Shown here piece after piece: positions 1 through 33,022 of a DNA stretch of 64,000 nt (position 1 is the stretch's first letter; every line of letters begins with the position of its first letter). The position numbers and the translations under genes are program-made. Source of the DNA: a virus (lineage: Duplodnaviria; Heunggongvirae; Uroviricota; Caudoviricetes); IMG/VR virus record IMGVR_UViG_3300024268_000040; one strand, 5' to 3'. The notes below the pieces were generated by a model. That model did not search any database. It worked only from the letters and a program-made list of their open reading frames with translations, and was not told the origin of the DNA.

Positions 1-392
1 AGAAGTACCAGTTCTATCTGAGTCATCATCCTACGATGACTTCCAACCTTGATAAGGCACCTTACCTCAAGATGCATCTTATCAACCTGTTCGGTCATAC
101 ACATCAGCAAAAGATGTTCTATGACGACACTCCTTTTATGTTCCATGTGGGACTTGATTCCAACGGCAATAAGCCAGTTCTTCTGGATGATGCCATTGAA
201 ATTATGAAGCAGGAAACAATTAAGTGCCTAGAGTTCCTTGATGAGGCTCCGGTCACTGTCGATCCCACTGCGTAGGAATAGAAAACCTGCCATCACTGCC
301 TCTATGAATTTACCTGCCACGATCGTCTATTTAGAGATAGACGATGTGAAAAATATAAAAGAGATCCGCCAGATGGCGGATACTACGGGTGA
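1..392 (+). CDS. Metallophosphoesterase-like protein, partial (5' end outside window). Reading through TAGs at 273 and 279 adds a Cys/His-rich tail that ends at TGA 390-392.
   Basis: The ORF is open from base 3. GHTH motif typical of calcineurin-like phosphoesterases. Continuation to TGA checked codon by codon in frame. Confidence 0.45.
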
Positions 393-406
393 AAGGAGGA
401 AGTAAA

Positions 407-676
407 ATGAGTCATTAGATTTAGTATATTGACTATCCCTGCCGAACTAGCGAACACGCAATTCAAAAAGATTTGAATCGTTTCGCTTATGACCCACAAG
501 AGTCAAGTGGCTATCACGGCAACTTGACATTCCACAAAGAGCCTGTGTATAAGAACCGGGCTGAAGCGCTGGCTGCGATTGAAAATATGGATCGCGGTTG
601 GTATGACGATCATGCGGTGAGATATCGTGATGGTCGTAAAATCAATTGGTTAGTTAAGTGCGAATGGCACTGCTAA
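407..676 (+). CDS. Hypothetical protein with TAG codons at positions 4 and 6.
   Basis: ATG 407 sits 7 nt after SD gaaaggagga. It is in frame with the listed ORF 473..676, and only TAGs (416, 422) intervene. Confidence 0.45.
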
Positions 677-721
677 AATATGTACCTTGAAAAAAACAAT
701 AATGAAAAAGGAGAACTGTAA

Positions 722-2242
722 ATGATTCCCACTATTATCACAGCCGGCATTGTGCTGGTCGCAGTCATTTTCGTCATCATCCTCATCAAGTCCTGCTGGA
801 AAGTTGCGGGCACCAACGAGGTTCTGATCGTATCCGGCCTGGGTAAGGTCAAGAAGAAGACCGGCGGCGGTATCTTCGTTATCCCCCTGGTGCAGAAGAC
901 GCAGAAGATGACCTTGGAAAATATCCAGGTTGACTTTACTTCCCGCAATGAAATTCCCACCAAGGACGCTATTCACGTGCTGGTTGACGCAGTTGCGAAC
1001 ATGGCTATCTCCAAGGACCCCGAACGCCAGGCAGTCGCTGCTTCCAAGTTTGCAGGTTACAGCATTCAGCAGATCCGTGACATTGTTATCCCCGTTTTGG
1101 AAGGTAACATCCGTGAAATCATTTCCCAGACCGAGTTCGAAGATCTGATTCGTGGCGATAAGAAAGCATTTGCGGAGAAGATCCAGGAGAACGTTACTCC
1201 CAACTTGGCTGACCTGGGTATCGACCTGACCACCTTCAACATTCAGAACTTCTCTGATAAGAATGGTGTAATTCGTGACCTGGGTATCGAGAACATCGAG
1301 AAGATCAAGAAGGAAGCTCAGATCGCTGCCGCCAAGGCTAAGGCTGAAGTTGCTATCGAGGCTGCAAAGGCTGACAAGGCTGCTAACGACGCCAAGGTTG
1401 AGGCTGCTACCGAGATCGCTCAGAAGCAGACTGAGTTCGCCGTAAAGAAGGCTGCTATGCAGGCCCAGGCTGACACCGAGCAGGCAAAGGCTGACGCTGC
1501 AAAGCAGATCGAGGCTGAGAACCAGCGTAAGGCTCGCGAAATCGCAGAAGCTGAGGCAAACCTGGCTCGTCAGGAGAAGGCAATTGAACTGCAGGAGCGT
1601 GAGGTTGCTATCCAGGAGCGTAAGCTGGAAGCAGAAGTGAAGAAGACTGCTGACGCTAAGAAGTATGCGGAAGCCCAGGCTGCTGATGCTAAGGCCTACG
1701 CCGCACAGAAGGCTGCGGAAGCCGAGCTGTATGAGCGTGAGCGCCAGGCTGAAGCTGCTCGTATCGAAGCTGAGAAGAAGGCTGCGGCCGACCTTGCTCT
1801 GGCAACTGCTGAGGCAGAGGCTCAGAAGCGCCTGGCTGAGGCTATCGAGGCCGAAGGTAAGGCTAAGGCTGCTGCCGCACAGGCCCAGGGTCTGGCAGAA
1901 GCAGAAGCTATCCGTGCTAAGGCTGAGGCTGAAGCAAAGGGTATGCTTGAGAAGGCTGAAGCTCTGAAGCAGTACGGCGACGCCGCTCGTCAGCAGATGG
2001 AGTTGGAAGCCACTAAGGTGTTGTACGAGCAGCTGCCTAAGATTGCTGAGGCAATCGGTCAGGGCTACAACGGCGCTAACATCCACCTGATTGGTAACGA
2101 TTCCGGTCAGCTGGCTGGCAACATGATGGCTAACATCACCCAGATCATCGAAGGCTTCAAGGGTTCCACCGGCATTGATCCCACTTCCGTAATTAGCGGT
2201 ATGTTGGGTGCAAAGTTGGCTGACAACTCTGATAACGTGTAA
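722..2242 (+). CDS. floT: Flotillin-like SPFH/band-7 membrane protein (FloT/YuaG-like), 506 aa.
   Basis: N-terminal membrane hairpin, an SPFH core, then a long Ala/Glu/Lys-rich EA-repeat coiled coil and a C-terminal tail, as in Bacillus FloT. GC ~55%, far above the flanking DNA. No TAG codons. Confidence 0.75.
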   Translation: MIPTIITAGIVLVAVIFVIILIKSCWKVAGTNEVLIVSGLGKVKKKTGGGIFVIPLVQKTQKMTLENIQVDFTSRNEIPTKDAIHVLVDAVANMAISKDPERQAVAASKFAGYSIQQIRDIVIPVLEGNIREIISQTEFEDLIRGDKKAFAEKIQENVTPNLADLGIDLTTFNIQNFSDKNGVIRDLGIENIEKIKKEAQIAAAKAKAEVAIEAAKADKAANDAKVEAATEIAQKQTEFAVKKAAMQAQADTEQAKADAAKQIEAENQRKAREIAEAEANLARQEKAIELQEREVAIQERKLEAEVKKTADAKKYAEAQAADAKAYAAQKAAEAELYERERQAEAARIEAEKKAAADLALATAEAEAQKRLAEAIEAEGKAKAAAAQAQGLAEAEAIRAKAEAEAKGMLEKAEALKQYGDAARQQMELEATKVLYEQLPKIAEAIGQGYNGANIHLIGNDSGQLAGNMMANITQIIEGFKGSTGIDPTSVISGMLGAKLADNSDNV

Positions 2243-2243
2243 T

Positions 2244-2333
2244 ATGATTAGTGCCCTCCATTTATTATGGATTATCCCGCTATCTGCGGGATTGGGCATG
2301 GCTATCATCGCCCTCGTGTCCGCTAACGACTAA
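2244..2333 (+). CDS. Possible 29-aa hydrophobic peptide immediately downstream of the flotillin gene.
   Basis: ATG 2 nt after the floT stop. Fully hydrophobic MISALHLLWIIPLSAGLGMAIIALVSAND. Very short, so speculative. Confidence 0.2.
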   Translation: MISALHLLWIIPLSAGLGMAIIALVSAND

Positions 2334-2351
2334 GTAAATATAGAATCCCAG

Positions 2352-2382
2352 CCCCAGGAAGAAATTCCTGGGGCTATTTGTC
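2352..2382 (+). terminator. Rho-independent terminator after the flotillin cassette.
   Basis: ccccagg-aagaaatt-cctgggg hairpin followed by a T-rich run. Confidence 0.5.
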
Positions 2383-2512
2383 GTTGGTTCTCGTTGTCGG
2401 TCGTTTCTGGGATTCCGATCGCCCATAGGAATTTTTTCTCCAAAATGCTCTAATTTGACTTTTCCTATTTTTTTGGGTATAATAATTATATCTTATAATA
2501 AAGGAGATTTAT

Positions 2513-2941
2513 ATGAAACACGAATATATTGAATTTGCTTTTGATGAAAAGTTGGGATATGCAAGATGTCTGATGATTTGTAATGGATAGGCATTTGAAG
2601 GTGGTGCTAAATGTCACCCCGATGATATGGATATGATTAGCGAGCGTACTGGTTGCTGCATTGCAGAGGCTCGCGCATATATCAAGGCATTGCGCTTCAA
2701 GCGCGACCATGAGATTCAACCTAAGCTCGATGTTTTGCGTCATTTATATAGTAATATGCAAACCAGTAAACATTTCAATCCAAAATCTTACGAAGCGAAA
2801 ATGTTGCGAAGTCAGATTGGGGCGATTGAAAAAGAATTAGCTACAATTAGCTAGGATTTAGCAGAAGAAAAGAAATATCTCAAAGAATATATCGACAAGA
2901 AAGATAAATTTTATCAAAGATTACGGGCCAGAAATCAATAA
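2513..2941 (+). CDS. Hypothetical coiled-coil protein; in-frame TAGs at 2588 and 2852, stop TAA 2939.
   Basis: SD aaggag 7 nt before ATG 2513. Same frame as listed ORF 2627..2854. The sequence past TAG 2852 still reads as protein (DLAEEKKYLKEYIDKKDKFYQRL). Confidence 0.5.
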
Positions 2942-2984
2942 TTATCAACCCCTAATACTCATATAACATAAGGGGGAGATATAT

Positions 2985-3236
2985 ATGGAGTTATTATATT
3001 TTATCCTTGGTATTTTATTTGTATCTTATGCGATACCACTTCTTGATGGGTTGAGCGGATTAGTACTTACCTGGATGGAAGCGAAAAAAGCCAAACAAAG
3101 CGAAATTATCAACCTAACCAATATCAAAATGCGTCAGGCGGCTGCCTCTGCCGAAGATGATACTCCCAAGAGACTGATCGGTTTCTGCCGCGAGGACGAC
3201 TACGAAGAAGAAGAGGACGATGATGATGAAGTATAA
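2985..3236 (+). CDS. Small membrane protein with an acidic C-terminus.
   Basis: 83-aa ORF with an N-terminal TM segment. Overlaps the start of the next gene. Preceded by a TGnTATAAT-type promoter near 2466. Confidence 0.35.
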   Translation: MELLYFILGILFVSYAIPLLDGLSGLVLTWMEAKKAKQSEIINLTNIKMRQAAASAEDDTPKRLIGFCREDDYEEEEDDDDEV

Positions 3237-4482
3237 GTTTTATGATACCTGCTCTTTGTTGATGAAGGCTAATCACTTATGGGACGATGATTCTGAAATA
3301 GTAATTTCTTCAATTACTTTAGAAGAATTAGAACATATTAAGACTTCTGCAAACAAAGATCCCGATGTAAAGTTTGCTGCTCGAAAAGTAGTACATGAAT
3401 TAGATGAACATTATAATAGTTATAAAGTTATGATTTGGAATAATACCCTTACTGATTTCATTGACGAATATCAATTACCCGTAAATGAAGACAGTAAAAT
3501 TCTCGCTTGCGCAGATGCCTTTATGGAGTCGCTAAAGCCAGAAGACGAAATCATATTTGTAACAAATGATTTATGTTGCAAACATTTAGCTCGTGTATGC
3601 TTAAATATGCCTGTTGAATCATATGAAGAAGAATCATATGATTATGATGGTTATAAAGAGGTTTATTTGGATACTGATAAAATGAGCGAGTTTTATTCTA
3701 ATATGGATAAAAATATGTTTGATTTACATATCAATGAATATTTACTCGTTTATAATGCAGATGCTCCAGAAGAACCCGCAGATAGACTATGTTGGACTGG
3801 TTCAGGCTATCGTCGTCTATCTTATGAAAACTTCAACTCCAATTATTTTGGAACTGTCAAACCAATGAAGGGCGATGTATATCAAGCGTTGGCATTTGAT
3901 AGTTTGAATAACAATAAAATCACAATGATAAAAGGTCCTGCGGGAACCGGTAAAACCTACATTAGTCTGGGCTTCCTGTTGCACAAACTCGAGCGCAACC
4001 GCATTGACCGTATTATTGTATTTTGCAACACTGTTGCAACTAAAAACTCTGCAAAACTGGGTTATTATCCTGGTACTCGCGATGAAAAATTACTTGACTC
4101 ACAGATCGGTAATTTGCTAATTAGTAAATTTGGCGGTCGTGTTGCGGTCGAGCAAATGATTGAATAGGAGAAATTAGTTTTATTACCTTTATCTGATATT
4201 CGAGGTTATGACACTTCTGGTATGAATGCTGGTATTTATATTTCAGAAGCTCAAAACTTAGATATTGAATTGATGAAACTAACACTACAACGAATTGGCG
4301 AAGATAGCGTATGCATCATTGATGGTGACTGTAAGGCACAGGTCGATGATATCCATTTCGCTGGTAGTAGTAATGGTATGAAACGAGCCTCTCAAGTATA
4401 TCGCGGAGAAGATGTATATGGTGAAATTACATTGAAAAACATTCACCGTTCTAAAATTGCAAAAATTGCAGAGAAAATGTAA
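3220..4482 (+). CDS. PIN-domain plus PhoH-like ATPase (YlaK-like). One in-frame TAG at 4165-4167.
   Basis: Walker A GPAGTGKT. After the TAG, ...LLPLSDIRGYD...AQNLDIELMKLTLQRIGEDSVCIIDGD aligns to the PhoH core VPLAFMRGRT...DEAQNTT..MKMFLTRIG. The two listed ORFs are in one frame. Confidence 0.8.
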
Positions 4483-4492
4483 TATATGTCAA

Positions 4493-4523
4493 CTAGGGTA
4501 GATTTTTCTACCCTAGTTTTTTC
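4493..4523 (+). terminator. Rho-independent terminator.
   Basis: ctagggtag-atttt-ctaccctag hairpin plus T6. Confidence 0.5.
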
Positions 4524-4553
4524 ATATCAATTTTGAGAGAAGGGAGAATATTT

Positions 4554-7079
4554 ATGGCTGTAAAAACTTACACAAAAGGAATTGCAACTAAATTAAGCAC
4601 AAATTTTAAGTCTACTGAATTTGACTGTCATGGATCTGGTTGCTGTTCTAAAACTTTAGTTGATGACAAATTAGTGGAATATTTACAAAAAATCAGAGAC
4701 CATTTTGGCAAGCCTGTAAATGTAAGTTCTGCTTATCGTTGTACTACACATAATAAAAATGTTGGTGGAGCAACTGGCTCTCGTCATATGAAAGGCCAAG
4801 CTGCAGATATTTATATTACAGGAGTAAAACCTGCCGAAATTGCCAAATATGCTGAATCTATTGGTATTTTAGGCATTGGTTTGTATGAAACTGATAAAGA
4901 TGGTCACTTCGTCCATGTGGATACTAGAACTACTAAATCTTTTTGGTATGGTCAAGCGCAAGCTAAACGCACTACTTTTGGAGGCGCAGTAACAACCGCT
5001 ACTCCTCAAAAAGAATTATACCGAGTAAGAAAAACTTGGGCTGATAGTAAATCTCAATTAGGTGCATATAGCATTTTAGATAATGCAAAGAAGACTTGTG
5101 ATAAAGCTGGTGTTGGTTATTATGTTTTTAATTCAAAGGGGGAAATTGTATATCCAGTAGCAAAAGAAGAGAAAGAAGAAAATGCTATAATCATTGATAC
5201 CTCTAAGGTTAATACAAATGCCATTGATGAAAAAGTAATGTGGAATTATTTTAAATCTAAAGGCTTAAATGATTATGGTATTGCTGGTTTAATGGGAAAT
5301 CTTTTTGCTGAATCTGGTTTACGTCCTTGCAATTTACAGCAGACCTATGAAAAATCTCTTGGTATGAGTGATGCTGAATATACTGCCGCAGTAGATGCAG
5401 GAATTTATACTAACTTTATTAATGATAAAGCTGGTTATGGTTTGGCTCAATGGACCTATTGGAGTTTGAAGCAAGAAATGCTCACTTATTTCCAAGCCAA
5501 TAAAAAATCTATTGGTGATGGTACTACTCAGATGGAATTCCTATGTCACCAATTGTCAACTAGCTACAAATCTGTATGGACTACTTTACAAACAGCAAAA
5601 TCTGTTTTAGAAGCTTCTAATGCAGTATTATTAAAATTTGAGCGTCCCGCCGATCAAAGCGAGGCCGCACAAAACAAGAGAGCAGGATATGGTCAAAAAT
5701 ATTATGACAAATATGCTGTTAAAGAAGAAGTTAAAATTGAAATCCCAAAAGAAGGAGGAAACGGAAAAATGAAGTATTCTGCTTCTAATAAACCCCTTGT
5801 ATGCATGCAAACTCAAAGCACTTGTTATAAAGGAACAAGTAAAATGACTGTTAAAGGCGTTTTATGGCATTCTACTGGTGCTAATAACCCTAATTTAAAG
5901 CGTTATGTGCAACCAAGTGACAATGCTTCTGATAAAGAGGAAATGTTAGCATTATTAGGTATAAATCAATATAAAAATGATTGGAATCATATTGAACGTC
6001 AAGCAGGATTAAATTGTTGGATCGGTAAATTAGCTGATGGAACTGTTGCTACTATATAGACAATGCCTTGGGATTATAAGCCTTGGGGTTGTGGTAGTGG
6101 TTCTAAAGGGTCTTGTAATAGTGGTTGGATTCAGTTTGAAATTTGTGAAGATGGATTAACTGATAAAACCTATTTTGATAAAGTCTATAAAGAGGCATGT
6201 GAAATTACTGCATATTTATGTGATATGTTTGATATTGATCCTTTTGGTACCGTCCGTGTTAATGGTATTGACGTTCCAACTATCTTATGTCATGCAGATT
6301 CTTATAAGTTAGGATTAGGCTCCAATCATGGTGATATTAATCATTGGTTCCCTAAATTTGGTAAATCAATGGAAACTGCTCGTCAAGATGTTGCTGATTT
6401 AATGGGAACTAAAGTATCTGTAATCGAACCAGCTGAGCCCGATAAAAAGGACGATGTACCTGCGGCCGCACCCTCTAATGAAATGTATCGTGTAAGAAAG
6501 TCATGGGAAGATTCAAAAAGTCAAATTGGAGCATATAGTCAATTACAAAATGCAAAAAATGCTTGTGATAAAGCTGGTATTGGATATTATGTCTTCAATT
6601 CCAAAGGAGAAGTTATTTATCCTGAACAGCCAAAGAAAAACGAAGTCATTGAGGCTGTAAATGATTTACAATTAGGTTAGGCAGTATCTTTAAAAAATGG
6701 AGCAAAATATTCTTCTGGTGCTTCCATTCCTTCTTGGTTATTTGGTAAGAAATTATATGTGCGTGAAATCCGTGATGACGGTAAAGTCGTATTTTCTACT
6801 TTAGCTTCTGGAGATATTACTGGTGTGACTTATGCTACTAATTTATTACCTTATAACGGAGATAGTATAGCAGCTCCAAAAGTACCGGAGTTTGAATCTT
6901 ATTTAGTTAAAATTGTTGCTGATGTATTAAATGTTCGTGCGGGAGCAGGCGTTTAGTATCGTATTAATACTCAGGTTAAAAAAGGTCAAGTTTATACTAT
7001 TGTAGGAGAATAGTCTGGTTGGGGCAAATTGAAATCTGGCGCCGGTTGGATTTCACTTAACTATACTAAGAAAATTTAA
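4554..7079 (+). CDS. Giant modular cell-wall hydrolase (endolysin), ~841 codons with 4 in-frame TAGs (6057, 6678, 6954, 7011).
   Basis: N-terminal M15-type peptidase motif (SAYRC..HN..VGGA..SRH..GQAADI), then an Amidase02_C-like wall-binding repeat (YRVRKTWADSKSQLGAYS) and a lysozyme-like domain (GIAGLMGNLFAESGL). After TAG 6057 comes an amidase-like domain with a second wall-binding repeat. After TAG 6678 come two SH3b-like repeats. Listed ORFs 4533, 6063 and 6759 share one frame. SD aagggag before ATG 4554. Confidence 0.7.
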
Positions 7080-7081
7080 TT

Positions 7082-7426
7082 ATGAATAAAAACAAAACTG
7101 CTCAAAAGCCCGCACCTAAAAAAGACACTGAATTCTCTAAAAGATTATTGATTCAAGAGTCACTTCTCTTATGGGTTGTGACTCTTGCATTTATTATACT
7201 CGCTTTTGTATGTATTTCAAATCAATATTTTGGTGAATTACCTTGGTTAACTGCAATGGCTATGGCTCCTTGGGGAGCATATGCTGTCGGCCAAGGCTTC
7301 TATTACCGAAAAGCAGAAAAAGAAAATACTCAAGGCGGTATAAAATATGAAACAGTTATGGCATAGTTGCAAACGAATGATGATGACCCATTAACTGAGT
7401 CATTTAGTGATAACGCTGCAGGATAA
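7082..7426 (+). CDS. Putative holin with two TM segments; in-frame TAG at 7364, stop TAA 7424.
   Basis: Starts 2 nt after the lysin stop. Two hydrophobic helices. Short charged tail after the TAG. Confidence 0.5.
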
Positions 7427-7441
7427 ATTAAACAACAAAAA

Positions 7442-7488
7442 GGCGAGATAGATGATTATTTTCATCTATCTCGCCTTATTTTTTTTTA
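7442..7488. terminator. Bidirectional rho-independent terminator between the convergent holin and tail-fiber genes.
   Basis: 14-bp stem ggcgagatagatga / tcatctatctcgcc, with a T-run on the + strand and an A-run upstream. Confidence 0.6.
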
Positions 7489-7491
7489 GTT

Positions 7492-8928
7492 TTAAGTTTT
7501 ATAAAATATCTCTCCAGTTGCACCAGAAGAAGGGAGAGAGCTACCATAGTTCTGAACAATAACTTTTTGACAATATAATGGAGCATAATTTCCACTCTAC
7601 CAACCACCTCGACTAGCTACTCGAAAAGGTAAAGGGGCATAAGCTGTACTATTACCACTTCTTGGAGTTTCAAAAACTAATCCCCCATTATCAACATACA
7701 TGCATCCCAAAGTAAATGTTTCAGTGCCGGCTCCATAAAAATAAAATGGATCAGTGGAAGTAAAACTGATTGAACCACTCATAGTACCGCCACTTAATGG
7801 TAATACTTGATCTAAATAAGCAATTTGATGATGATGGTTAAAAGTAGTACGATTTGAACCATTCGCAAAATATAATTTATCAAACTAATGACTATAATAA
7901 AAAGCACCAAAAGCAGCATCACTCTAATACCAAGCAATACCTGTCATCCAACCGCTAACATCAGCACCAGCATTAGTAATTTCAGGTAAATTTTTATTAC
8001 CATACAACATTCGCAAATGAAATTTTCCTTCAGCCATGTCATAAAAATTATTATAATCATTAATACTACGAATTTCAACTGTAGCTGTAGTAGCTGACTA
8101 GCCAGACACATTAATATTCCAAGTACCAGAAGCTCCTCCGCCTGTTAGAGTTGGAGAATATGAATTATAATTGCTACTATCTAATACTCTTTTCCAAGGC
8201 TTTCCCACGCAAGCGCTTGAGTTAGTTCTATACCATAATCCGTTACTATCCTATACTCCAAACGCTAATTGACTAATCCAATCAGTATTACTTCCTGCTC
8301 CCCAAGCCATACTTAACCCATGTATCCATCCTGCAGCTCCACGAGGATTATCTTCTGCTGCGTGAATCATAGCAGCAGCAAAACCTTGTTTAGCAAGGTC
8401 ATTAAAAGTTACAGTAGAAGAACCTCCCACATTATTTGAATTATATACTTTAATATAATTATTTGAACCAGATGCAGGACATGCCCAATTACTATAATTT
8501 GCAGAAGTTAAAATTGGTTTCCAATCATTCCATGTTGTAGTATTCTTTCTTGAGCGTACTGCCATTCCGCCACTACCAGCACCATCATCTATCCAAAGCT
8601 ATGCTCCCCATCCTGATCCTTGCCCAATAGAGAGTACGGCACCATCATTTTTAAGTCCAGTAATATCACTTCCAATCCAAGTTAATTGCATTCCATTATT
8701 TAAAAAAGCATCAATATCAGCATCAGTATTTAATTTTGTCGCATTTTTATTTAAAATAGAAGCTCGACCAACATTCATATTTGCTGGAGTAATATAATAT
8801 ATATAATTATCTGATCCAATACAAGCAATTTTATTTACACTTGTTTTTGCCGTTGCTGCTGAAGTATATAGCCATTCTGATTTTAAATATTTTCCTTCAA
8901 TATGGCCATCAACTTTTAACGTTCCCAT
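7492..8928 (-). CDS. Tail fiber paralog 1 (~478 codons, multiple in-frame TAGs).
   Basis: Listed minus-strand ORFs 8599..8928, 8251..8565 and 7597..7782 share one frame, separated by TAG (cta on +). The 3' end was traced to TAA at 7492-7494. N-terminus MGTLKVDG. LPLSGGT-type fiber motif. Region 8110-8190 is ~85% identical to 13455-13540 in paralog 3. Confidence 0.65.
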
Positions 8929-9098
8929 ATATAAAATCTCCTTTCTCTCAAAGAGTATAAATCTATTTCTATATTATATTATTTTTCCTAAAGCATTTTT
9001 TTTCTTCTGGCCAGAAGAAAAAAAAACTCATATATGATTTTTTATATATAATTAGAAATATAACTCTTTTTATTTTGAGAGAAAGGAGATTTTATATA
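8929..9098. promoter_or_regulatory. Divergent late-gene control region. Two copies of the conserved late leader flank a perfect 34-nt palindrome tttttttcttctggccagaagaaaaaaa.
   Basis: Both divergent genes have an identical SD context, gagagaaaggagattttatatATGGG. The same ~95-nt leader recurs at 14330-14440 and 52241-52345. Confidence 0.5.
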
Positions 9099-10886
9099 AT
9101 GGGAAAATTATAGATTAATGGGGATTTGCTTCTTGCAGCTGGTAATGAAGATCGCTTTTTAACATTTAATTACACTGGTGGAACTGGATATGATTGGCGC
9201 ATAGGTTATTTAGGATCTGGTGCAGGTAATGAAAACTTTTTAGTATTTTAGAGCGATAAAGAAGGTAGCACCTTTTATAATGCTTTAAAATTTGGCTTAA
9301 CTACATTAAATGCTGAGTTCGGTGGAACTGTAACTGCTTCATCATTTATTGGTAATTTAAGTGGTAATGCGTCTACTGCTTCCAAGCTATCTGCGGCACG
9401 CACTTTCACTATTGGAGATAGTAGTAAATCTTTTGATGGTAGCGGGAATGTGTCTTGGACATTAGCGGAGATAGGGGCTTCTGATAGGACTTTATTATTA
9501 GGTAATTCTAAAGCGATTTGGATTGATGGAAATGCAAACACTTATTATCCTGTTTATATTAATATGGGGCACGGTGGTATTTTATTTGGATGGGAGACTT
9601 TATCAATATCTCGCCGATATAATGACAGTGCGCCCAATAGCTGGAATACATCTACTCATAGGGGCGGTTTAACTTTTACACTGCGATGGAGTGGTGACTC
9701 AGGATGGGGCGGAAATGATCATAATATTATGGTTGAAGAATTTAGTGAAACTTATTCTACAATGGTTGGTGGTATGACATTATCCGTTGATGGACTAATA
9801 GTTTGGTTGCGCGGCGGCGGAGCAAGATATTACTTGAGTAGTCCATATGGCTTAGCTGCTTATGCAACTGTTTATTATGACGGATATACTGCTGGTGATG
9901 GGCGCACCTATTCTGCACGCAGTTATAATGCAGATACTGTAGCAAGTGAAATTCATTCAAAATGGCTTGTACGACCATGGGGAATATTTGCTGGAACCGC
10001 ATCTAATGCTGATACTATTGATGGACATCACTTTAACTGGGATGGCAAAGGTGGGCAGCCCACTTGGCTATGGGGCGCTAATGAATATGGTAATAGCTAT
10101 GTGTATAATCCAGCTAATTTTAGTGTAAATTATGCTAATAGTGCTGGAAGTGCAGGTAGCTCCACAACTACTTCTTATCCAGCGGGATTTGTTTAGAGGG
10201 CATCCACATCAGATTGGGGTACTGTGCGAACTGGCTTAATTACGGAGTGGGATGCTGGCCCAAACAGTAATAAAGGCGCAGTGGCTTTTATGGCATATCC
10301 GAGTGCGAATGAAGTTAGTGTTAAAATTGATGGTTATTTTTTCTAGAATGAAGGTAATAATAGGGTATTGGATATTGGAGATATTCCTGTTAACAGTGCT
10401 TCAGCATGGTTAAATACTTCTGGGTGGTATAAAATCGCTACAGTAACTAAATACAGCGGAAATACTGGCCCTTTATCTGTATTATTAATTATTGGAAAGA
10501 ACTATTCATATTCAACTAGTGATATGTTTACTATTTTAGTTCAAGGCGGTTATTATAATACATAGTTTATTCCTCTTGGACATTGTGATAATGGCCTTGA
10601 TTGCTTTACTTATATTCGTTCCACTGGAGATGGGGCCGCAACTGGATTTGACATTGAAGTATATTTAAATACTCCTTCTGGAGGTAATAATTTTTATGTT
10701 AAAGCTGTTGCGCTAATCGGTAATGTTTCTTGTCATGCATTTGCCTCACCATCTGGGTCAGTAATGAAAACTTATCAAATTCAAAATTGTACCCATAATG
10801 GAACTTTTGGTACTACTGATCCAGCTTCTAATCCCTCTGCGATTCCTGGCTATGGTGAAACTGGTGCAATTTATTATAAAATTTAA
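9099..10886 (+). CDS. Tail fiber paralog 2 (595 codons; TAGs at 9111, 9249, 10194, 10344, 10563; stop TAA 10884).
   Basis: SD gaaaggag before ATG 9099. Translated codon by codon: MGKL-Q-INGDLLLAAGNEDRF... continues in frame into listed ORFs 9450 and 10368 with no TAA/TGA. C-terminus ...GAIYYKI. Confidence 0.75.
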
Positions 10887-10904
10887 TTAAATAAAAAAAA
10901 TAAA

Positions 10905-10945
10905 GGCGAGATATTGATTAATTTCAATATCTCGCCTTTTTATTG
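10905..10945. terminator. Bidirectional terminator.
   Basis: ggcgagatattga / tcaatatctcgcc hairpin flanked by A- and T-runs. Confidence 0.55.
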
Positions 10946-10950
10946 TTTAA

Positions 10951-11361
10951 TTAACAAACAGGAGTGATTTTATTCAAACTAACTTCTGCTTCAATCTTAT
11001 TAGTGATATAAGCAGTTAAGTCGCCATAAATCTCACTTAAATATTTCTTTGCATCATCAGTTAATACTGTCATAACAGCATTAAATGTCAAATCAAAAGC
11101 TTCTTTTTGAGCTTCTTTAGTAAATGCATTTTCCTTCTTTAATGCGTCAACATATGTCTGAGTAGTAGCAATAACACAAGCACAAATAGTATCATCGAGC
11201 ATTGCGATGTATTTATCCGCAGTATCATTATCAACCTTGTTTTGAATTTCTGCACTTTTTGCATTAATAAACTTTACCACATAGGCAGTTAATACACCTA
11301 ATAGAGGAATAACACATACTTGTAAAATTTCATATAATAATGGTAACCATTCCATAATCAA
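10951..11361 (-). CDS. Membrane protein, possibly a second holin (LLH-like).
   Basis: 136 aa with an N-terminal TM helix (MIMEWLPLLYEILQVCVIPLLGVL) and a charged amphipathic remainder. Last gene of a minus-strand late operon. Confidence 0.35.
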   Translation of the reverse strand: MIMEWLPLLYEILQVCVIPLLGVLTAYVVKFINAKSAEIQNKVDNDTADKYIAMLDDTICACVIATTQTYVDALKKENAFTKEAQKEAFDLTFNAVMTVLTDDAKKYLSEIYGDLTAYITNKIEAEVSLNKITPVC

Positions 11362-11549
11362 TCTTCCTCTCCAGTATGATCAATGCCCATCAACTTATCT
11401 ACACATTCAGTAAGGCTATTAATCATTTCTTGTAACCAATGGTCGCTTAAATCAGACCATTCTTTTACTTTTTTAATATAGGCGTCTTGCTCTTTAATTT
11501 GGCGCTCAAGTACTTCAATACGAGCTAATAATTCTGCATTGGTAGGCAT
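11358..11549 (-). CDS. Small coiled-coil protein.
   Basis: 63 aa. SD (aaggag) upstream on the minus strand. ATGA overlap with the downstream gene. Confidence 0.35.
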   Translation of the reverse strand: MPTNAELLARIEVLERQIKEQDAYIKKVKEWSDLSDHWLQEMINSLTECVDKLMGIDHTGEED

Positions 11550-11646
11550 TTTTAATTCTCCTTTACTTCATTAAAATTCGGATTTTATTCCGTATTATTT
11601 ATAAAATTTTAATATTAAATAACAAATGAGGTTTGACCAATTTAAA

Positions 11647-12240
11647 TTATCCGCCACACTATTTCCAATTAGTACCATCAACGCATATCCAAGGAATGCA
11701 TTGTTTCCAATTAGTACCATCAACACAAATCCAAGGTAATGCTCGTTGCCAGTTTGTCCCATCTGTATTTATCCATACCGTATTACCATCATAAGTTGCA
11801 TAAATGCTACAGCTGGTCATAAGATAACAAGACCATACTGCATCTGGATACCAAATATAAAAATAATAAGTAGTATTAGGTGATAACGATAAATTCTAAA
11901 TATTAAAAGTTACTGTTGAAGTAGCCTAATATACGGTTCTTGGAACAACTACTGTAGTTGTGCGAGTCTATTTTTTTAAAGTGTCAAAACTTGTAATTTT
12001 TGTAGATGTAATAAGTACATTATAAGTTTTCTAAGAAGTTGCTGAGCCGCTATATTTATCATAAGCATCAAAAGTAATGCTTAAGCTTGTTGTTTTGCCA
12101 CTAGACGGAGTTACAAACGGAATACCGCAAGCATAAAAAACAGAGTATTCAGTTTCATATCCGAACCATCGCCGGTCATCTCTGCCATTAGAGTGACATG
12201 GAACATAATTATCTTGTTGTGCTATATTTCCACTTTGCAT
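11647..12240 (-). CDS. Fiber-associated protein with a C-terminal tandem 12-aa repeat (L/I)PWICVDGTNW(K/Q) x3; several in-frame TAGs.
   Basis: Traced in frame from ATG at c(12238..12240) to TAA at c(11647..11649). SD aagggag 8 nt upstream. Starts 13 nt after the fiber-3 stop. The N-terminal ~35 aa of listed ORF 12031..12342 is antisense overlap and was ignored. Confidence 0.45.
11650..11765. repeat. Direct tandem DNA repeat of ~39 nt, about 2.5 copies.
   Basis: tttccaattagtaccatcaacgcatatccaaggaatgca, then ttgtttccaattagtaccatcaacacaaatccaaggtaatgct. Confidence 0.6.
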
Positions 12241-12253
12241 AATATTTACTCCC

Positions 12254-14329
12254 TTATCCAATAGTCTAATAATAAAGCGTGCCAACTCGAGCATTACCAC
12301 TAGGTTGATTTGCACCAAAATTGTGACAAGTATCTCCAGCATTAACTTTAATACCTATTTCGTATCCAACATCAGAAGGAATAGTATCCCAAAATCCATA
12401 ATTCTAAATAGAAGAATACCATTGATAAGATTCTAAAACAGTAATGTTTGCCTAAGAATAATTAACGTATTTCATCCACATGGTAAAATTACCAGTACTC
12501 TCATTATAATAGGCTTTAAAATCATCAATTCCATAAGGGCAAGAGCCATTATAGTTTAAACTTCCAACAAGAGGGGCCAAACCAGCGCTATTAACATCTA
12601 AAGTTAGACTAAAAATTCCAGTGCCCTAATATCTAGATGAAATTGCTAATACTAACCGAGCATTTCGCCATCCCCCAAGAGTCTCTTGGCAAATTTTTAC
12701 CCATTTTCCATTGTGAGTGCCAGGTTCGCCCCACATCGCAGTGGTTGATGTAAGTCTATTAGCTGTAGAAGCCTATCCTGCCGTGGTAGCATAATTTGCG
12801 GTACCTGTAAAATAATTAGCATGAATAGTCGCATCACCATTTGGTCCTCCAAAAACAAATTTAGTTGGAATAGGTCTAGCATCTGTTGCACGATATCCCA
12901 TATAAATTGTTGAATCTATATAGTTATTAGTGCCACCGAAATTAATTTCATTATTTTTCTCTGCTACAATACTCATAGTTCCATCACCTATGTTAATATG
13001 ACTATGAGATTGTGGTTTAAAAGATTCTTCACTTATTTCAGTTGAATCACTTGGTAAAATTGTATTAAATTGTGCAGTATGAACCCAATTATTTACATAT
13101 CTACCATTTAATAAAGAAACATCCCAATAACCATAACTATTTCCACCATATACTGCAACATATAAATATAATCTATTATTTGTAGCATCTTTATATAAAT
13201 AAAATGTTCGTTTTATTTTTCCTCCTATTTGCACTCTAGAAGTAGAATAACCAAAACCACCATTAGTATCACTCTATACTGTAATTAAATCAGATGAAGA
13301 ATGCTAATTTCCCCAAAAAGAACTGCTAACGCATAACACCCAACTCTAAAATTCAGAACCAACTTGAAAATATCCAAGTTCTAAAATATGTGTATCAGCA
13401 TCTGCGTAAAATCCTCCCCATGCTGTTCCATTATAAATAAGAGCTGATGCACCAGTAATGTTAATACCCCAAGTGCCAGAAGCTCCTCCGCCTGTTAAAG
13501 TTGGAGAGTATAAATTATAATTGGCAGAAGTTAGTAAAGTATGCCATGGAATATCAGTTAAAGTAGCATTAGGTTTTTGTATTCCTCTAATTGCAAATCC
13601 GTACTAACTACTTCCTGCAATTTGCATTTTACACACACCATCATGAAAATTTACACATCCGTAATATCCATCCCAGGGTTTTGCACCAGAAACTGTCACT
13701 TCATTTGATGCACGTACTTCAAAAAATCCGTTAAAAGTCAAATTATCAATATTATAAGAATTTCCAACATCTTCCCGAGTGAGTGTGTAGAAACCTCCAT
13801 TATTAGGTGTTAAAATTTTATAATTAGTACCATTTTTACGATGATATATATCAGTGTTATAGGTCTCAAGATAAATACTTTTTCCACTATTACCAGACCC
13901 GTAAACTGCCAAAAACAATCCATCTGATGAATTAGCAGCTAAATATGCATCTGTATTAATGTTTGTAAATCTTAAAGCATATTCAGCTTTTAATATAGCA
14001 GAATCTCCATGAAAATTAATACCATAAACATCAGCCCATCTAACAGTTGGTCCACCTAAATTATAAATGGCATCTCCTATTGGATAAAAAGTATTACTAT
14101 TCATGCGAAAACGAGGTTCTGCCTAAGTGTAAAATACTAAATCATTATTATTCGCATAACCGCTGCTAGCCATTCCACCAATACCAGCCCATTTAACTGA
14201 ACTATCACTAGCATTTAAAAATTTTATGCCTGGACCCCATCCAGTCGAATTGTAATTTAATGTTTGATGAAGTACCAAAGGCCAACTCTAACCATCGAGG
14301 TTAGATACATTAATTTTTAAAGCACCCAT
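12254..14329 (-). CDS. Tail fiber paralog 3 (~691 codons, many TAGs).
   Basis: Start MGALKINVSNLDG-Q-... behind the conserved leader. The frame was followed through listed ORFs 13604..14104 and 12773..13234 and the gaps between them, which contain only TAG. TAA at 12254-12256. Confidence 0.65.
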
Positions 14330-24502: not shown

Positions 24503-25492
24503 ATGGAATGGTTGATTTTACTCGCCTCTGTGCTCGTTGCTGCCGGATTAGGCGGCTTTATCACATATCGACTGTTTAGATAGCGGCTATTTGCCGTCCA
24601 GGAGTTCGACAAGTCGATTGCTATGAAAAACGAGCAATTAAGAGAAGAAAATAAGATTTTAGAAGAGAATAATCAAGATTTATTCAATCAAAATGATTAT
24701 CTAAAATCTGAAAAAATCAAGCTGGATATTCAAAACCAATCTGCTAAAGAGTAGTTGGAGAGCCTCAATGGCAGTATCTCAGCTATGGAAAAGTAGGCTC
24801 AAGAGGCCGCTGAACTATTCTATGCGTCTCGTATGTAGGCTGCATAGGAGAAACTCGCGCAATCACTTCAAGAAGAAAACCAAAAATATCAAGATAATAT
24901 AATTGGTTTTTAGACTGAATATGATAAAACTGTTGCTGATATGTTAGAAGCTTTTCAAGAGTTATCTGATAATGTAGCTGTTATGCGAGCTACAAATGAC
25001 GCCGCAGTTGCCGCAGCCAAGAGAGCCGCTGAAATGAAAGATTAGTAGGCTTTTTATCGCATTTAGTTATCTGACGCAGATATTCACGAAATTGAATTAT
25101 TGCGATAGGTTGAACCCTATTTGCGAGATAAGGAGCCTTTGAATAAAGTCATATGGAAATGCTATTACGAAAAACCAACCACCGACCTTATTGGTCGAGT
25201 AATTGGTACAGGAGTAAAAACTGGAATTTATAAAATTACAGAAATTGAAACTGGTAAATGCTATGTTGGTTAGGCTGCTAATTTAGCAGACCGTTGGAAA
25301 TAGCATATTAAGCGTGGTGTAGGCGCAGAAACGCCAACCCGCAACAAACTCTATCCTGCAATGATTGCGGCCGGCCCAGAGAATTTCACTTTTGAGGTCG
25401 TCGAAATCTGCGATCGCTCTGCGCTCGATGCGCGTGAGGACTACTGGCAGGATTATTTCAAGGCGAAAGAATTTGGATACAGTATAAAGTAA
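24503..25492 (+). CDS. Membrane-anchored coiled-coil protein with a C-terminal GIY-YIG nuclease domain; 12 in-frame TAG codons in 330.
   Basis: N-terminal TM MEWLILLASVLVAAGLGGFI, then a long coiled coil, then GIYKITEIETGKCYVG-Q-AANLADRWK-Q-HIKRG...ENFTFEVVEICD...ARE.YW. The TAGs fall where the two other phage GIY-YIG proteins have Gln (YIGQS, RWRQH). Ends at TAA 25490. Confidence 0.7.
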
Positions 25493-27611: not shown

Positions 27612-28553
27612 ATGAAAAAGACTATGATCAATCAATCCCACATTGAAGGAATTTTATACGAGCACAGCCTGGAGGCCAAGGTTTCTGGCGATACTTCCAA
27701 GAACCCCGGCACTCCCTTCATCACTGGTACTATCAGCATCGCAACTGATGATGCTATGACTAACATTGTGCCCGTTCATTTCACTTATGTGACTGCTACT
27801 TTTGGCTCTGGTAAGCCTAACGATACTTACACCACTCTGAATAACATCGTGAATGGTACTTTCGGTACTTACATGAAGGATGGCGCCGATAAGGCTGTCA
27901 AGCTTCGTGTTGACTCTGCTTTGGGTCTGAACGAGTTCTATACTGACCGCAACGGTAAGGAAGAGCTGGTTTCCGCTAAGCGCAACGAGGGTGGTTTCGT
28001 TCATAAGGTTGATACTTTGGACGAAGACGAGAAGGTTCGTAACACCTTCAAGGCTGATATGGTTATCACCACTGCTACTTTGGTAGAGGGCGATCCCGAG
28101 AAGAATACTGTTGACAAGGTAATTGTCAAGGGTGCTATTTTCGACTTCCGTAAGAGCCTGCTTCCCGTTGAGTTCAGCGCTACTAATAAGAACGCTATGA
28201 ACTACTTCCTTGGTCTGGGAGCTTCCATTAAGAACCCTGTTTTCACCTGCGTATGGGGTCGTCAGGTATCTGAGACCATCGTTCGCCAGATCGTAACTGA
28301 GTCTGCTTTCGGTGAGGACGAAGTTCGTGAAGTAAAGAACACTCGTCGTGATTTCGTTATCACTGGCGCCGCTAAGGAGCCTTATGTATGGGATGACGAG
28401 GGCTCTATCACTGCTGCTGAGCTGAATGAAGCTATCCAGAAGCGTGAGGTTGATTTGGCTGCAATGAAGCAGCGTCAGGATGAGTACCGTGCTTCTAAGA
28501 ACCGTATCACTCCTGCCAATGCAGCTCCCGCACAGGGCGGATTCAATTTCTAA
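27612..28553 (+). CDS. Hypothetical protein, possibly the ssDNA-binding partner of the Sak4-like ATPase.
   Basis: 313 aa. GC-rich, TAG-free. The N-terminal beta-rich region has an OB-fold-like pattern. Sits directly upstream of the Sak4-like gene. No strong motif. Confidence 0.3.
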   Translation: MKKTMINQSHIEGILYEHSLEAKVSGDTSKNPGTPFITGTISIATDDAMTNIVPVHFTYVTATFGSGKPNDTYTTLNNIVNGTFGTYMKDGADKAVKLRVDSALGLNEFYTDRNGKEELVSAKRNEGGFVHKVDTLDEDEKVRNTFKADMVITTATLVEGDPEKNTVDKVIVKGAIFDFRKSLLPVEFSATNKNAMNYFLGLGASIKNPVFTCVWGRQVSETIVRQIVTESAFGEDEVREVKNTRRDFVITGAAKEPYVWDDEGSITAAELNEAIQKREVDLAAMKQRQDEYRASKNRITPANAAPAQGGFNF

Positions 28554-28579: not shown

Positions 28580-29551
28580 ATGGCAATTGATTTGTTGGCT
28601 TTACAGCCTCATAAAGTTTCTCGTGACCTTAGTGGTTACATCACATATATCTACGGCGCTCCTAAGTGCGGCAAGACCACTCTTGCCGCCCAGATGGAGA
28701 AGCCTTTGCTTCTCGCCTTCGAGCCTGGTTACCACGCTCTGCCTGGCGTAATGGCACAGGATGTTACTTCCTGGGCTGAAATGAAGCAGGTTTATCGTCA
28801 GTTGAAAATGCCTGAGGTCCAGGCTATGTATCGTTGTGTTATTATCGACACTATCGACATCGCTGCTGACCGTTGCAAGAAGTATATCTGCAATCAGAAT
28901 GGTATCGAGGACTTGGGCGATCTGGGTTATGGTAAGGGTTGGACCAAGTTTAAAGAAGAGTTCAACGAAGTCTTCCGTGGTTTGACTCAGCTCGGCTATG
29001 CTGTGTTCTTTATCGGGCACGAAAAGCTGGAAGTTGTCGACAATCCCGATGGCACTAAGACTACTAAGATTCGTCCTCAGTTGAGCAACTCCACCAAGAC
29101 TGTTATCGCTGGTATGGCTGACATTTATGGTTATGCCCACCAGAAGGCAGCTGGTGAGATGTCTGTTCTGACTCTGCGTGATGGTTCCGGTATCATTGAG
29201 TGCGGCTGCCGCTTCAAGTATATGCCCGTTGAAATTGTTATGAGTTACAAGAACCTCGTCAATGCTTTGAATGAAGCTATTGATAAGGAAGCTGAGGAGA
29301 CTAATAATATGTTCGTTACTAACGAGCGCATTGTGGCTCCTACTGAGATATCTTATGACTATGATGCTCTGATGGCTGAATTCCAGGATCTGGTAGGCCA
29401 GTTGATGAGCCGTGGCACTACCAACGGCCCCAAGATTACTGCTATTGTTGAGAAGTATCTGGGTAAGGGCAAGAAGGTTAGCGACACCATTCCTGAGCAG
29501 GCTGAATTCGTAAGTCTGATCGTAAGCGACATCAAAGCTGACCTCATGTAA
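28580..29551 (+). CDS. Sak4-like RecA-fold ATPase (AAA_24 family), putative recombination/annealing protein.
   Basis: YITYIYGAPKCGKTTLA Walker A, ...CVIIDTID Walker B, FFIGHEK. Confidence 0.7.
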   Translation: MAIDLLALQPHKVSRDLSGYITYIYGAPKCGKTTLAAQMEKPLLLAFEPGYHALPGVMAQDVTSWAEMKQVYRQLKMPEVQAMYRCVIIDTIDIAADRCKKYICNQNGIEDLGDLGYGKGWTKFKEEFNEVFRGLTQLGYAVFFIGHEKLEVVDNPDGTKTTKIRPQLSNSTKTVIAGMADIYGYAHQKAAGEMSVLTLRDGSGIIECGCRFKYMPVEIVMSYKNLVNALNEAIDKEAEETNNMFVTNERIVAPTEISYDYDALMAEFQDLVGQLMSRGTTNGPKITAIVEKYLGKGKKVSDTIPEQAEFVSLIVSDIKADLM

Positions 29552-32435: not shown

Positions 32436-32946
32436 CCACGATTATATTCATACGAGTTTGAAAATTTTGGAAGAAATCACTAAGCGTTCTGGTGGTGTCA
32501 AACTGAGAGAAGATAATATCTTGTTTATGTTATCTACTCGATTGAAAGATATCTGCAACCAACATGGTGTGTTTATCATGTCAGCCACTCAGTTGAACGG
32601 TGATTACCAGGATAGTAAAACTCCAGACCAGAACTTACTGCGTGGTGCGAAAGCTATCGCAGATAAGATTGACTATGGCTCCATTCTTCTTTCTGTAAAA
32701 GATGATGATTTGGTAGCCTTAGAAAATATATTATCCTCTAATATTTTTGAAAGACCTACAATTAAGATGTCAATTTACAAAAATAGACGAGGTAGATATA
32801 AGGGCGTAATTTTATGGTGTAAGGCAGATTTGGGCGTGTGTCGTATTAAACCAATGTTCTGCACTACCTATGATTATGAAATGGTGAGTATTGACGATGT
32901 TCGTATTAGAATTGACGAAGAATCAGCCTTCGAGTGCGAAGAGTAA
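32436..32946 (+). CDS. dnaB: DnaB-family helicase, exon 2 (5' boundary approximate).
   Basis: NILFMLSTRLKDICNQHGVFIMSATQLN matches the DnaB H3/H4 region EISRSLKALAKELNVPVVALSQLNR. Stop TAA 32944. Confidence 0.7.
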
Positions 32947-33022
32947 TCGAGGGCTGAGAGCAAAAGCTAATTTGTTACATGATTCCGATTTTGGAATTGT
33001 AAATAAGAAGGAGATAAATGAA

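Follow-up and report, generated by a model that had tools for sequence, protein, structure and literature searches.

Is a flotillin gene that stands out by its base composition in a stop-codon-recoded phage a recent gift of a bacterium, or has it long belonged to the phages that carry it, and what might it do there? The question is raised by the gene at 722..2242 of a 64,000-nucleotide stretch of DNA (the window, below) from a virus of the Caudoviricetes, IMG/VR record IMGVR_UViG_3300024268_000040. A first-pass annotation, made from the letters of the window, had described a full-length SPFH/flotillin in a TAG-recoded phage, rich in G+C (GC) and free of TAG codons, and had explained it as a recent capture from a bacterium with the standard code. 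The present analysis leads to another answer, namely that the flotillin has very probably been resident in phages for long and did not come recently from a bacterium, and that its codon bias looks like translational optimisation. That its product is highly expressed and forms an oligomeric, membrane-bound scaffold we consider somewhat better supported than its opposite, and the two propositions taken together are held with similar, moderate confidence. Any particular physiological role is doubtful.

The gene and the parts of its product, as read from the sequence, are the following.

722..2242, + strand, flotillin open reading frame (ORF) of 506 amino acids, ATG start and TAA stop
residues 2-25, predicted transmembrane (TM) helix
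residues 26-208, SPFH/Band_7 domain
residues 183-282 and 307-450, long Ala/Glu-rich helices
residues 461-501, C-terminal helical domain

The product is a genuine full-length flotillin-class SPFH protein, as had been annotated, and profile match, sequence alignment and structural model agree on this. The Pfam family Band_7 (PF01145) matches residues 28-208 (E 1.2e-21) with positions 2-176 of the 176 in the profile covered, and a phmmer search against all PDB sequences returned human flotillin-1 first (9BQ2_B, E 1e-40; residues 29-334 and 375-485 aligned with flotillin-1 residues 5-311 and 305-414) and human flotillin-2 second (E 8e-34), with QmcA far weaker (E 2e-5). An AlphaFold2 model based on an alignment of 50 sequences has a mean predicted local distance difference test score (pLDDT) of 75.8, reaching ∼90 in the SPFH domain, and consists of an N-terminal helix (2-25), a mixed alpha/beta SPFH domain to residue 180, followed by helices of great length (183-282, 307-418, 420-450 and 461-501). 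With this model Foldseek found the flotillin complexes 9L3G and 9BQ2 first (E ∼1e-20, 25-26% identity), covering 440-490 columns of the PDB flotillin chains, and next HflK/C, stomatin, prohibitin, erlin, QmcA and major vault protein (MVP). The SPFH/Band 7 domain is thus combined with a long Ala/Glu-rich helical region and a C-terminal domain collinear with those of flotillin-1/2, which is what defines the class. Ala makes up 32% and Glu 17% of residues 209-440, which hold 38 EA/AE dipeptides and are 70% Ala, Glu, Lys and Gln in sum; residues 2-25 (IPTIITAGIVLVAVIFVIILIKSC), hydrophobic in sequence, form a single helix in the model, as an N-terminal membrane anchor should. The Pfam family ‘Flot’ (PF15975) was not reported on the window protein at E <= 0.01; it was recorded, mostly weakly, on the relatives P0122, P0129 and P0134. 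The annotated label ‘FloT-type’ describes the architecture well and fails as an equivalog assignment, the FloT model NF058507 giving 204.3 bits where its cutoff is 700.

Relatives of this protein are numerous, and the close ones lie in phages. A whole-database homology search gave 5209 significant matches; the best 120 are 88-99% identical, all metagenomic, and come from contigs of up to 221 kb. In three of these, the ENA contigs L001, L025 and L026 (L numbers denote the loci of relatives), the gene order is an unmistakable large-phage context, running Metallophos_2, an 89-amino-acid gene, flotillin, a 141-amino-acid gene, an 83-amino-acid TM protein, PIN-PhoH, a multi-domain endolysin, gyrase B and gyrase A, and the window shares the relatives' order around flotillin. 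Ten close IMG/VR relatives, on viral contigs of 45-194 kb, are all syntenic. Moreover, a profile-guided scan of IMG/VR found at least 304 viral stretches that encode flotillin relatives, and the best 80 of these, mostly on contigs of 90-424 kb, have flotillin identities of 39-87%. When neighbours were clustered over 86 loci, a block of Metallophos, AAA_33, Metallophos_2, (p95), flotillin, p142, TM83 and PIN-PhoH, continued by the endolysin, was found in ∼35 of them and down to 40-46% flotillin identity. Conservation in related phages, which the first-pass annotation had proposed as a check, is therefore broad: where a recently acquired gene would show patchy presence, every syntenic relative examined, down to the same level of identity, has flotillin in this place.

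These data bear directly on the captured-gene explanation, according to which a FloT-like host flotillin came in recently from a standard-code bacterium of higher GC and still carries, in its GC and its lack of TAG, the unameliorated signatures of the donor. The gene is indeed a compositional outlier of the window and TAG-free, flotillins are common in bacteria, and one homologue of ∼45% identity (L014) lies in a bacterial-looking context of 65% GC beside GH43/GH172 genes. However, the search for a donor by homology returned no close bacterial homologue. The best matches, which for a xenologue would lie in a donor genome, are on phage contigs; L014 is the closest in a bacterial context; the search of 50%-identity representatives and the cluster names gave no named bacterial close relative; and the next 50%-identity clusters beyond the clade stand at 57%, 49%, 45% and lower, the nearest of them (40-57%) coming from metagenomes only. 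Four outgroup contexts were inspected, of which L008, L010 and L012 (57%, 44% and 42% identity) are phage-like and L014 is the bacterial-looking one. A scan of GTDB genomes found flotillin relatives only on contigs of metagenome-assembled genomes (Acutalibacteraceae, Nanosyncoccus and Bacteroidales) that have phage synteny; we treat these as binned phage contigs, not as donors, and as at most a weak hint of the host. Among the phages of INPHARED, a tblastn search with the protein gave matches of at most 39% identity, and at the DNA level 7.9 kb of the window matched only a 92-bp ligase segment of Clostridium phage c-st; this phage is not among the deposited isolates. Synteny kept down to 40-46% flotillin identity also speaks against a recent arrival, as do the score far below the FloT equivalog cutoff and the codon usage considered below, so that recent capture from a bacterium is now a very improbable explanation and the flotillin is better regarded as a resident of these phages. 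The observation that the first-pass annotation had named as refuting capture, best matches among phage proteins of similar GC, is what was obtained: the top matches come from phage contigs of the same gene order, and their GC is raised in like manner.

The feature that had suggested capture is composition, and here the annotated description ‘unusually GC-rich’ is accurate: the gene has a GC of 0.538 against a mean of 0.386 for coding sequences, positions 1001-2000 reach 0.552 where all other 1-kb bins of the window lie between 0.31 and 0.48, and both its GC and its GC at third codon positions (GC3, 0.61) are the highest among the 55 delimited genes of the window. With window-average synonymous codons the same protein would be encoded at 0.424 GC, and thus about a quarter of the excess (+0.04 of +0.15) comes from amino-acid composition and the remainder from codon choice. 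GC3 is raised in every segment of the gene (0.57-0.70), so that the EA region alone is not the cause of the high GC; the Ala/Glu-rich sequence, which would supply the smaller share, was rejected as the main source. The favoured codons are GCT (58 of 101 Ala codons), CGT, GGT/GGC, CTG, AAG, CAG, ATC, TCC and CCC, with A-ending and NCG codons avoided, which makes the bias one of GCT/CGT/GGT type and not of GCC/GCG/CGG type. A bias of this kind is typical of codons that are optimal for translation, not of a high-GC donor. It is shared by other genes of the same window.

27612-28553, + strand, SSB-like protein gene (phrog_2367, C-terminal GGFNF)
28580-29551, + strand, Sak4-like AAA_24 annealing protein gene
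32891-33340, + strand, gene of a 149-amino-acid Asn/Lys-rich basic protein

These three further genes have flotillin-like bias, with a GC3 of 0.51-0.53, AAG at 84-96% of Lys codons and no TAG. The relative synonymous codon usage of flotillin correlates at 0.80 with the SSB-like gene and at 0.71 with the Sak4-like gene, at 0.02 with the pooled remaining genes of the window and at -0.26 with its TAG-rich tail-fibre-like genes. The comparison of codon usage with the phage core, also proposed in the first-pass annotation, thus finds a phage pattern and not that of a foreign donor: the composition is atypical of the genome mean, yet is matched by the phage SSB-like and Sak4 genes, and the bacterial-context homologue L014, with a GC3 of 0.95, has a quite different signature. 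Moreover, flotillin GC lies above that of its flanks in 80 of 80 IMG/VR loci (mean +0.092, range 0.034-0.151), close relatives' flotillins have AAG at 0.7-1.0 of Lys codons, and flotillin GC3 declines along with the genome in lower-GC relatives. Altogether the bias looks like translational optimisation of the kind linked to expression and not like a donor-GC signature, and from it we infer that flotillin is abundantly expressed.

Several points weigh against this interpretation. Flotillin GC3 is low in some lineages (0.26 in L006 and 0.18 in L040), so strong optimisation is not universal; the level and timing of expression are read from codon usage only; and ‘optimality’ here means a general pattern of codon choice, from which the preferred set of the host may differ.

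The absence of TAG from the gene has to be judged against the coding of the window, which is supported as TAG-recoded, in the manner of genetic code 15. Greedy ORF coverage rises from 80% in the standard code to 94% when TAG is read as sense, and the 55 genes of the window end in TAA (38) or TGA (17), none in TAG, in agreement with the premise of the first-pass annotation. Window TAGs aligned with relatives fall mostly on Gln, Glu, Asn or Asp (∼56% of aligned residues); one well-conserved site corresponds to Gln in 22 of 22 aligned residues, sites elsewhere align mainly with Gln, Glu, Asn, Asp or Lys at variable positions, and two sites in p95 align with Ala/Leu and Arg/Gly. Family scans of TAG-containing window proteins were run with TAG read as Gln. 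ARAGORN found no tRNA gene in the 64-kb window, and hence no suppressor tRNA(CUA) there; for the distant, short loci of relatives, differences in ORF density were too small to decide on recoding. The TAGs are unevenly spread, 54 of the 84 in-frame TAGs of the window falling in seven genes.

7492-8928, - strand, tail-fibre-like gene
9075-10886, + strand, tail-fibre-like gene
12254-14329, - strand, tail-fibre-like gene
50504-52240, - strand, tail-fibre-like gene
56086-58287, - strand, tail-fibre-like gene
24503-25492, + strand, GIY-YIG-like ORF of 329 codons, 12 of them TAG, and denser in TAG than any other in the window
4533-7079, + strand, multi-domain endolysin of 848 amino acids with 4 in-frame TAGs

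The flotillin frame has no in-frame TAG in its 506 codons, as had been annotated. By chance this has a probability of 0.10 at the pooled TAG frequency and of 0.34 when the seven TAG-rich genes are left out, and 27 of the 55 window genes, including genes of 639, 663 and 791 amino acids, are equally free of TAG; as a per-codon statistical anomaly, TAG-freeness was therefore set aside as weak. Other yardsticks give lower values, P = 0.006 when judged by the 14% that TAG contributes to Gln codons elsewhere (flotillin has 33 CAG and no CAA) and, by our own arithmetic, P ∼0.016 against its operon neighbours with 7 TAGs in ∼860 codons. We rely instead on conservation across relatives: all examined flotillin relatives, in sets of 17 and 80 loci, are open in the standard code, which we take as the strongest and in effect decisive evidence on TAG-freeness. 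The genes probably co-transcribed with flotillin, on the other hand, themselves carry in-frame TAGs, and because of this the ‘early’ expression assumed in the first-pass annotation is unproven. The avoidance of TAG in flotillin amid TAG-bearing operon mates bears on how recoded phages partition their genes into suppressor-dependent and suppressor-independent ones; stop-codon recoding together with standard-code-compatible genes has been described for gut phages (bioRxiv 10.1101/2021.08.26.457843).

The pattern of substitution indicates that the flotillin is under strong purifying selection, the ratio of non-synonymous to synonymous divergence (dN/dS) being 0.035 for L001, the closest relative, and between 0.02 and 0.16 for most of the others. 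Descent appears not to have been purely vertical, however. When window positions 1-12000 are compared, flotillin is 98.8% identical to L001 in protein and 94% in DNA, while its flanks are 51-92% identical in protein and 72-83% in DNA; dS against L001 is 0.24 in flotillin and 1.7 in the adjacent PhoH gene, a ∼7-fold difference, and L021 and L022 have closer flanks (73-80% amino-acid identity) but a more distant flotillin (63-64%). These points tell against simple vertical residence and suggest that recombination between phages, synonymous constraint or both have also acted at flotillin. They raise the alternative that the gene is old in phages and its GC-rich allele was recently recombined in from a GC-richer phage of the same clade, so that the composition would be that of the donor phage. 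Besides the mosaic identity, the dS gap and the discordance of L021/L022, this explanation can point to relatives with GC-richer flanks and similar GC3 (L032: GC3 0.61, flanks 0.43). Nevertheless, the codon usage matches SSB-like and Sak4 genes lying 25 kb away in the same genome, GC exceeds that of the flanks in all 80 viral loci, and strong codon bias itself lowers dS, which is 0.73-0.78 against L021/L022 despite a dN of 0.28. We therefore rate a recently recombined allele as quite unlikely to be the source of the composition, and a resident gene tuned in place remains the preferred account.

The transcriptional setting of the gene is defined by the following elements.

707..713, + strand, ribosome-binding site AAAGGAG, with GGAG at 710-713, 8 nt 5′ of the flotillin ATG
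2244..2333, + strand, gene of a 29-amino-acid hydrophobic single-TM peptide (MISALHLLWIIPLSAGLGMAIIALVSAND), starting one base past the flotillin stop (TAAtATG)
2350-2375, + strand, intrinsic-terminator-like hairpin AGCCCCAGGAA-GAAA-TTCCTGGGGCT from the terminator scan, with a T-rich tail to 2385
2455..2483, + strand, Sigma-70/SigA-type promoter TTGACT-17-TATAAT from the promoter scan (11/12), before the next operon, p142 - TM83 - PIN/PhoH
2513-2941, + strand, p142 gene, with a conserved CHPDD.D..SER.G motif, found in 35 loci
2985-3236, + strand, TM83, an 83-amino-acid TM protein with a poly-acidic tail, found in 25 loci
4491-4518, second terminator-like site, preceding the endolysin

Flotillin is probably co-transcribed with the upstream genes, because the promoter scan found no + strand site in 1-2200, including the gap between the upstream ORF (which ends at 676) and flotillin. 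A hydrophobic 29-amino-acid ORF and a terminator follow it, as the first-pass annotation had noticed. The hairpin has an 11-bp stem with 7 GC pairs, a folding free energy of -22.5 kcal/mol and a z score of -4.95; its sequence is kept 3′ of flotillin in L001, L004, L025 and L026, with a compensated variant in L006, and the TTGACT...TATAAT promoter is kept in the same five loci. Since the hairpin and the promoter are both conserved, flotillin ends one transcription unit, and the p142 - TM83 - PhoH operon opens the next. The 29-amino-acid ORF has a counterpart in L025 (MISALHLLWIVPLSAILGMLVIALVSAND) that differs by 8 synonymous and 4 conservative non-synonymous codon changes (our count), L026 holds a 34-amino-acid version, and L006 has a 29-amino-acid hydrophobic ORF that overlaps the flotillin stop and is possibly related; no such ORF follows flotillin in L001, L004, L015, L016, L019-L022 or L024. 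Because versions are present in L025 and L026, with mostly synonymous changes in the former, we consider the ORF a real accessory TM-peptide gene of some lineages, positioned for translational coupling to flotillin.

On the opposite strand, an ORF at 650..2308 (- strand, 552 amino acids, or 597 with TAG read through) is Ser/Leu/Cys-rich and of low complexity. It recurs only where the relatives' flotillin is GC-rich (cluster ‘c571’) and was rejected as a gene, being a by-product of the GCN/GAR-rich coding strand, although naive gene callers could prefer it.

How such a gene would serve the phage can be proposed as follows. Flotillin is very probably a resident, vertically inherited gene in a clade of large (∼120-220 kb) TAG-recoded gut phages, its synonymous codons tuned for efficient translation as in the phage SSB-like and Sak4 genes, and the exclusion of TAG would permit bulk synthesis by the standard-code machinery of the host without stop-codon suppression; optimised codons and the lack of TAG together mean that the protein could be made abundantly in this way. 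The N-terminal helix would anchor it in the cytoplasmic membrane of the host, leaving the SPFH domain and the coiled coil in the cytoplasm, an N-out/C-in topology suggested by the lysines after the helix and the positive-inside rule. By analogy with the solved complexes of flotillin, HflK/C, stomatin and prohibitin, and since the SPFH fold and the helical wall are common to solved cages, the protein would probably homo-oligomerise into a ring or cage around a membrane patch on the cytoplasmic face, and in the lineage of the window the co-translated 29-amino-acid TM peptide may accompany it. It tempers this proposal that cage and topology rest on homology and on a monomer model whose pLDDT falls below 50 at residues 284-307. 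That the phage employs such a scaffold to make the membrane of its host more stable, or to rearrange it, during takeover is speculative, and the remodelling of membrane microdomains during infection that the first-pass annotation had suggested is plausible. A more specific version, that large gut phages own a set of membrane-cage genes (flotillin in hundreds of them, next to an MVP-like gene in some lineages and to LemA pairs in others) and express flotillin highly, with the standard code, so as to form membrane microdomains of viral making that shield against abortive-infection pores or premature holin lesions, or that scaffold replication or assembly, is put forward tentatively and is rather unlikely as stated.

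The neighbourhood suggests two other roles. Flotillin lies 1-3 genes 5′ of the lysis region in ∼35 of the 86 clustered loci and is followed in 25 loci by the conserved 83-amino-acid TM protein with an acidic tail, and solved HflK/C cages enclose FtsH (PDB 7WI3 and 9CZ2 are among the fold matches), so flotillin could be imagined to control lysis timing, by restraining holin- or endolysin-associated membrane proteins or by regulating an FtsH-like protease as HflK/C does, without being a general scaffold. Yet a conserved terminator and promoter divide flotillin from the downstream genes, the flotillins of other phage lineages have MVP-like, LemA, PARG or NAD-synthase genes beside them and none for lysis close by, and the protein is closer to flotillin-1/2 than to HflK/C, all of which makes control of lysis improbable. 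The second possibility is counter-defence, in which a flotillin cage would shield the membrane from pore-forming or depolarising abortive-infection effectors as part of a module with NAD+ salvage, ADP-ribose and RNA-repair genes. NAMPT, NAD synthase, NADAR, SIR2, NMNAT-like, Metallophos and AAA_33 genes lie near flotillin in L001, L025 and L026, PARG in L008 and L010, and NAD synthase with a PolyA_pol-family (PF01743) nucleotidyltransferase in L012; RlaP and Thg1 are also among its neighbours in distant lineages, and phage NAD+ synthesis has been proposed as counter-defence (PMC11662467). This is guilt by association only, however: no known anti-defence homologue is involved, and large phages cluster many unrelated non-structural genes. 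PADLOC gave no match, so flotillin is not a known defence component. A counter-defence module of this kind thus receives little weight from us, and the membrane scaffold, with no particular task assigned, is retained.

The wider neighbourhoods of relatives are of interest in themselves. Upstream of flotillin, L001 (1-9800), L025 (1-9950) and L026 (1-9950) have a long same-strand NAD+ salvage/ADP-ribose array with Pribosyltran, YqeY, SIR2, NAMPT/NAPRTase, NAD synthase, NADAR, NMNAT-like, Metallophos and AAA_33 members, which resembles the published ‘NAD-jumbo phages’. In sister phages (flotillin 45-57% identical) an ∼835-amino-acid vault-like protein follows flotillin (L008 5178-7691, also L040, L042, L065, L066, L070 and L072), with an MVP shoulder domain (MVP_shoulder, E 1e-20), Vault_3 repeat domains and, at its C terminus, a coiled coil rich in EA. 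In L097, L098, L100, L104, L085 and L086 (IMG/VR contigs of 27 to 411 kb) flotillin is directly preceded by one or two genes of the LemA family (E 9e-28), joined in most of these contigs by a 259-amino-acid two-TM protein that is missing beside the LemA pair of L100; these genes are at about 2000-4000 in each locus. The vault-like and LemA neighbours are further membrane- or cage-associated folds, which is a hint and no more.

Downstream of flotillin, p142 and TM83 always come after the flotillin unit and are transcribed from the conserved consensus promoter. TM83 is not supported as the holin, since it has no PHROG match and the window has a bona fide holin elsewhere.

7082-7426, + strand, 114-amino-acid TM protein, after the endolysin
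10951-11361, - strand, holin, TAG-free (phrog_13712, E 1e-37)

The endolysin has orthologues in L001 and L025 with Peptidase_M15, Phage_lysozyme2, Amidase_2 and SH3_3 domains. The lysis genes of the window are split, the holin lying 3.5 kb off on the opposite strand with two tail-fibre-like genes inserted between; in L001 the holin comes directly after the endolysin block. Four of the tail-fibre-like genes (7492-8928, 9075-10886, 12254-14329 and 50504-52240; GC3 0.16-0.23) are large paralogues that share an N-terminal ‘MG(T/A)LK(V/I)(N/D)’ motif, extended in one, and a C-terminal ‘YY(K/Q)(T/I)’ motif; 7492-8928 and 12254-14329 were scanned and have no PHROG match, and the four may be a diversified receptor-binding set. 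The GIY-YIG-like ORF has a TM helix at its N terminus and the GIY-YIG-like module at its C terminus, beside a Gln-rich coiled coil. The window also encodes a DnaE-type polymerase (phrog_405) and a dUTPase, beside the Sak4-like protein and the holin.

The flotillin family itself is known, and the new facts are the breadth of the phage clade and the optimisation pattern. Full-length flotillins are, by the IMG/VR scan, a widespread and strongly constrained gene of large gut phages, and in a recoded AT-rich phage a GC-rich gene without in-frame stops can be an old optimised resident, which codon-level analysis separates from an import. If cages form as in the solved homologues, phages may take an active part in ordering or protecting the membrane of the host; were the more specific proposal of virus-made microdomains true, it would reveal a virus-encoded membrane organiser in bacteria and assign a first role to any phage SPFH protein. 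In the literature we found no functional study of a phage flotillin and no description of this full-length flotillin clade, and neither jumbo-phage overviews nor the NAD-jumbo-phage paper mention flotillin.

Among known systems, annotated phage SPFH proteins comprise PHROG 200 ‘lipoprotein’, the ‘flotillin family protein’ of phage csAssE-Sib and the SPFH protein of Gibbsiella phage GIB1. They are distant (28-39% identity over part of the length; the match of the window protein to phrog_200 is weak, E 6.5e-7), being short SPFH lipoproteins or unannotated records, and the GIB1 authors state that the role of the phage SPFH gene is unclear (PMC13239085). The cages of HflK/C, QmcA-YbbJ, stomatin, prohibitin and erlin share with the window protein the SPFH fold and a helical wall (fold E 1e-12 to 1e-8), but differ by much weaker sequence similarity and shorter coiled coils, and some by another topology or by partners such as FtsH and NfeD. 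From SPFH-NfeD operons the locus differs in its partner, as no NfeD-type (yuaF-like) protein was found among the flanking window proteins or the Pfam-annotated neighbours in L001, L025 and L026, and phage-specific neighbours, in some lineages including the 29-amino-acid TM peptide gene, stand there instead. Bacillus subtilis FloT (YuaG) is similar in its N-terminal anchor, SPFH domain, EA-rich coiled coil and length of ∼500 amino acids, and the FloT hidden Markov model matches residues 10-386 in part (E 4e-60); the score below the equivalog cutoff nevertheless sets the phage protein apart as not an orthologue. The closest likeness is to eukaryotic flotillin-1 and flotillin-2 (9BQ2, 9L3G), with near-full-length collinearity over the SPFH domain, the long Ala/Glu-rich helices and the C-terminal domain. 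Flotillin-1/2 are generally described as attached through a hydrophobic hairpin plus acylation, whereas a single TM helix at the N terminus is predicted for the phage protein, and, with one virus-encoded gene here, any assembly would be homo-oligomeric and not a Flot1/Flot2 heteromer.

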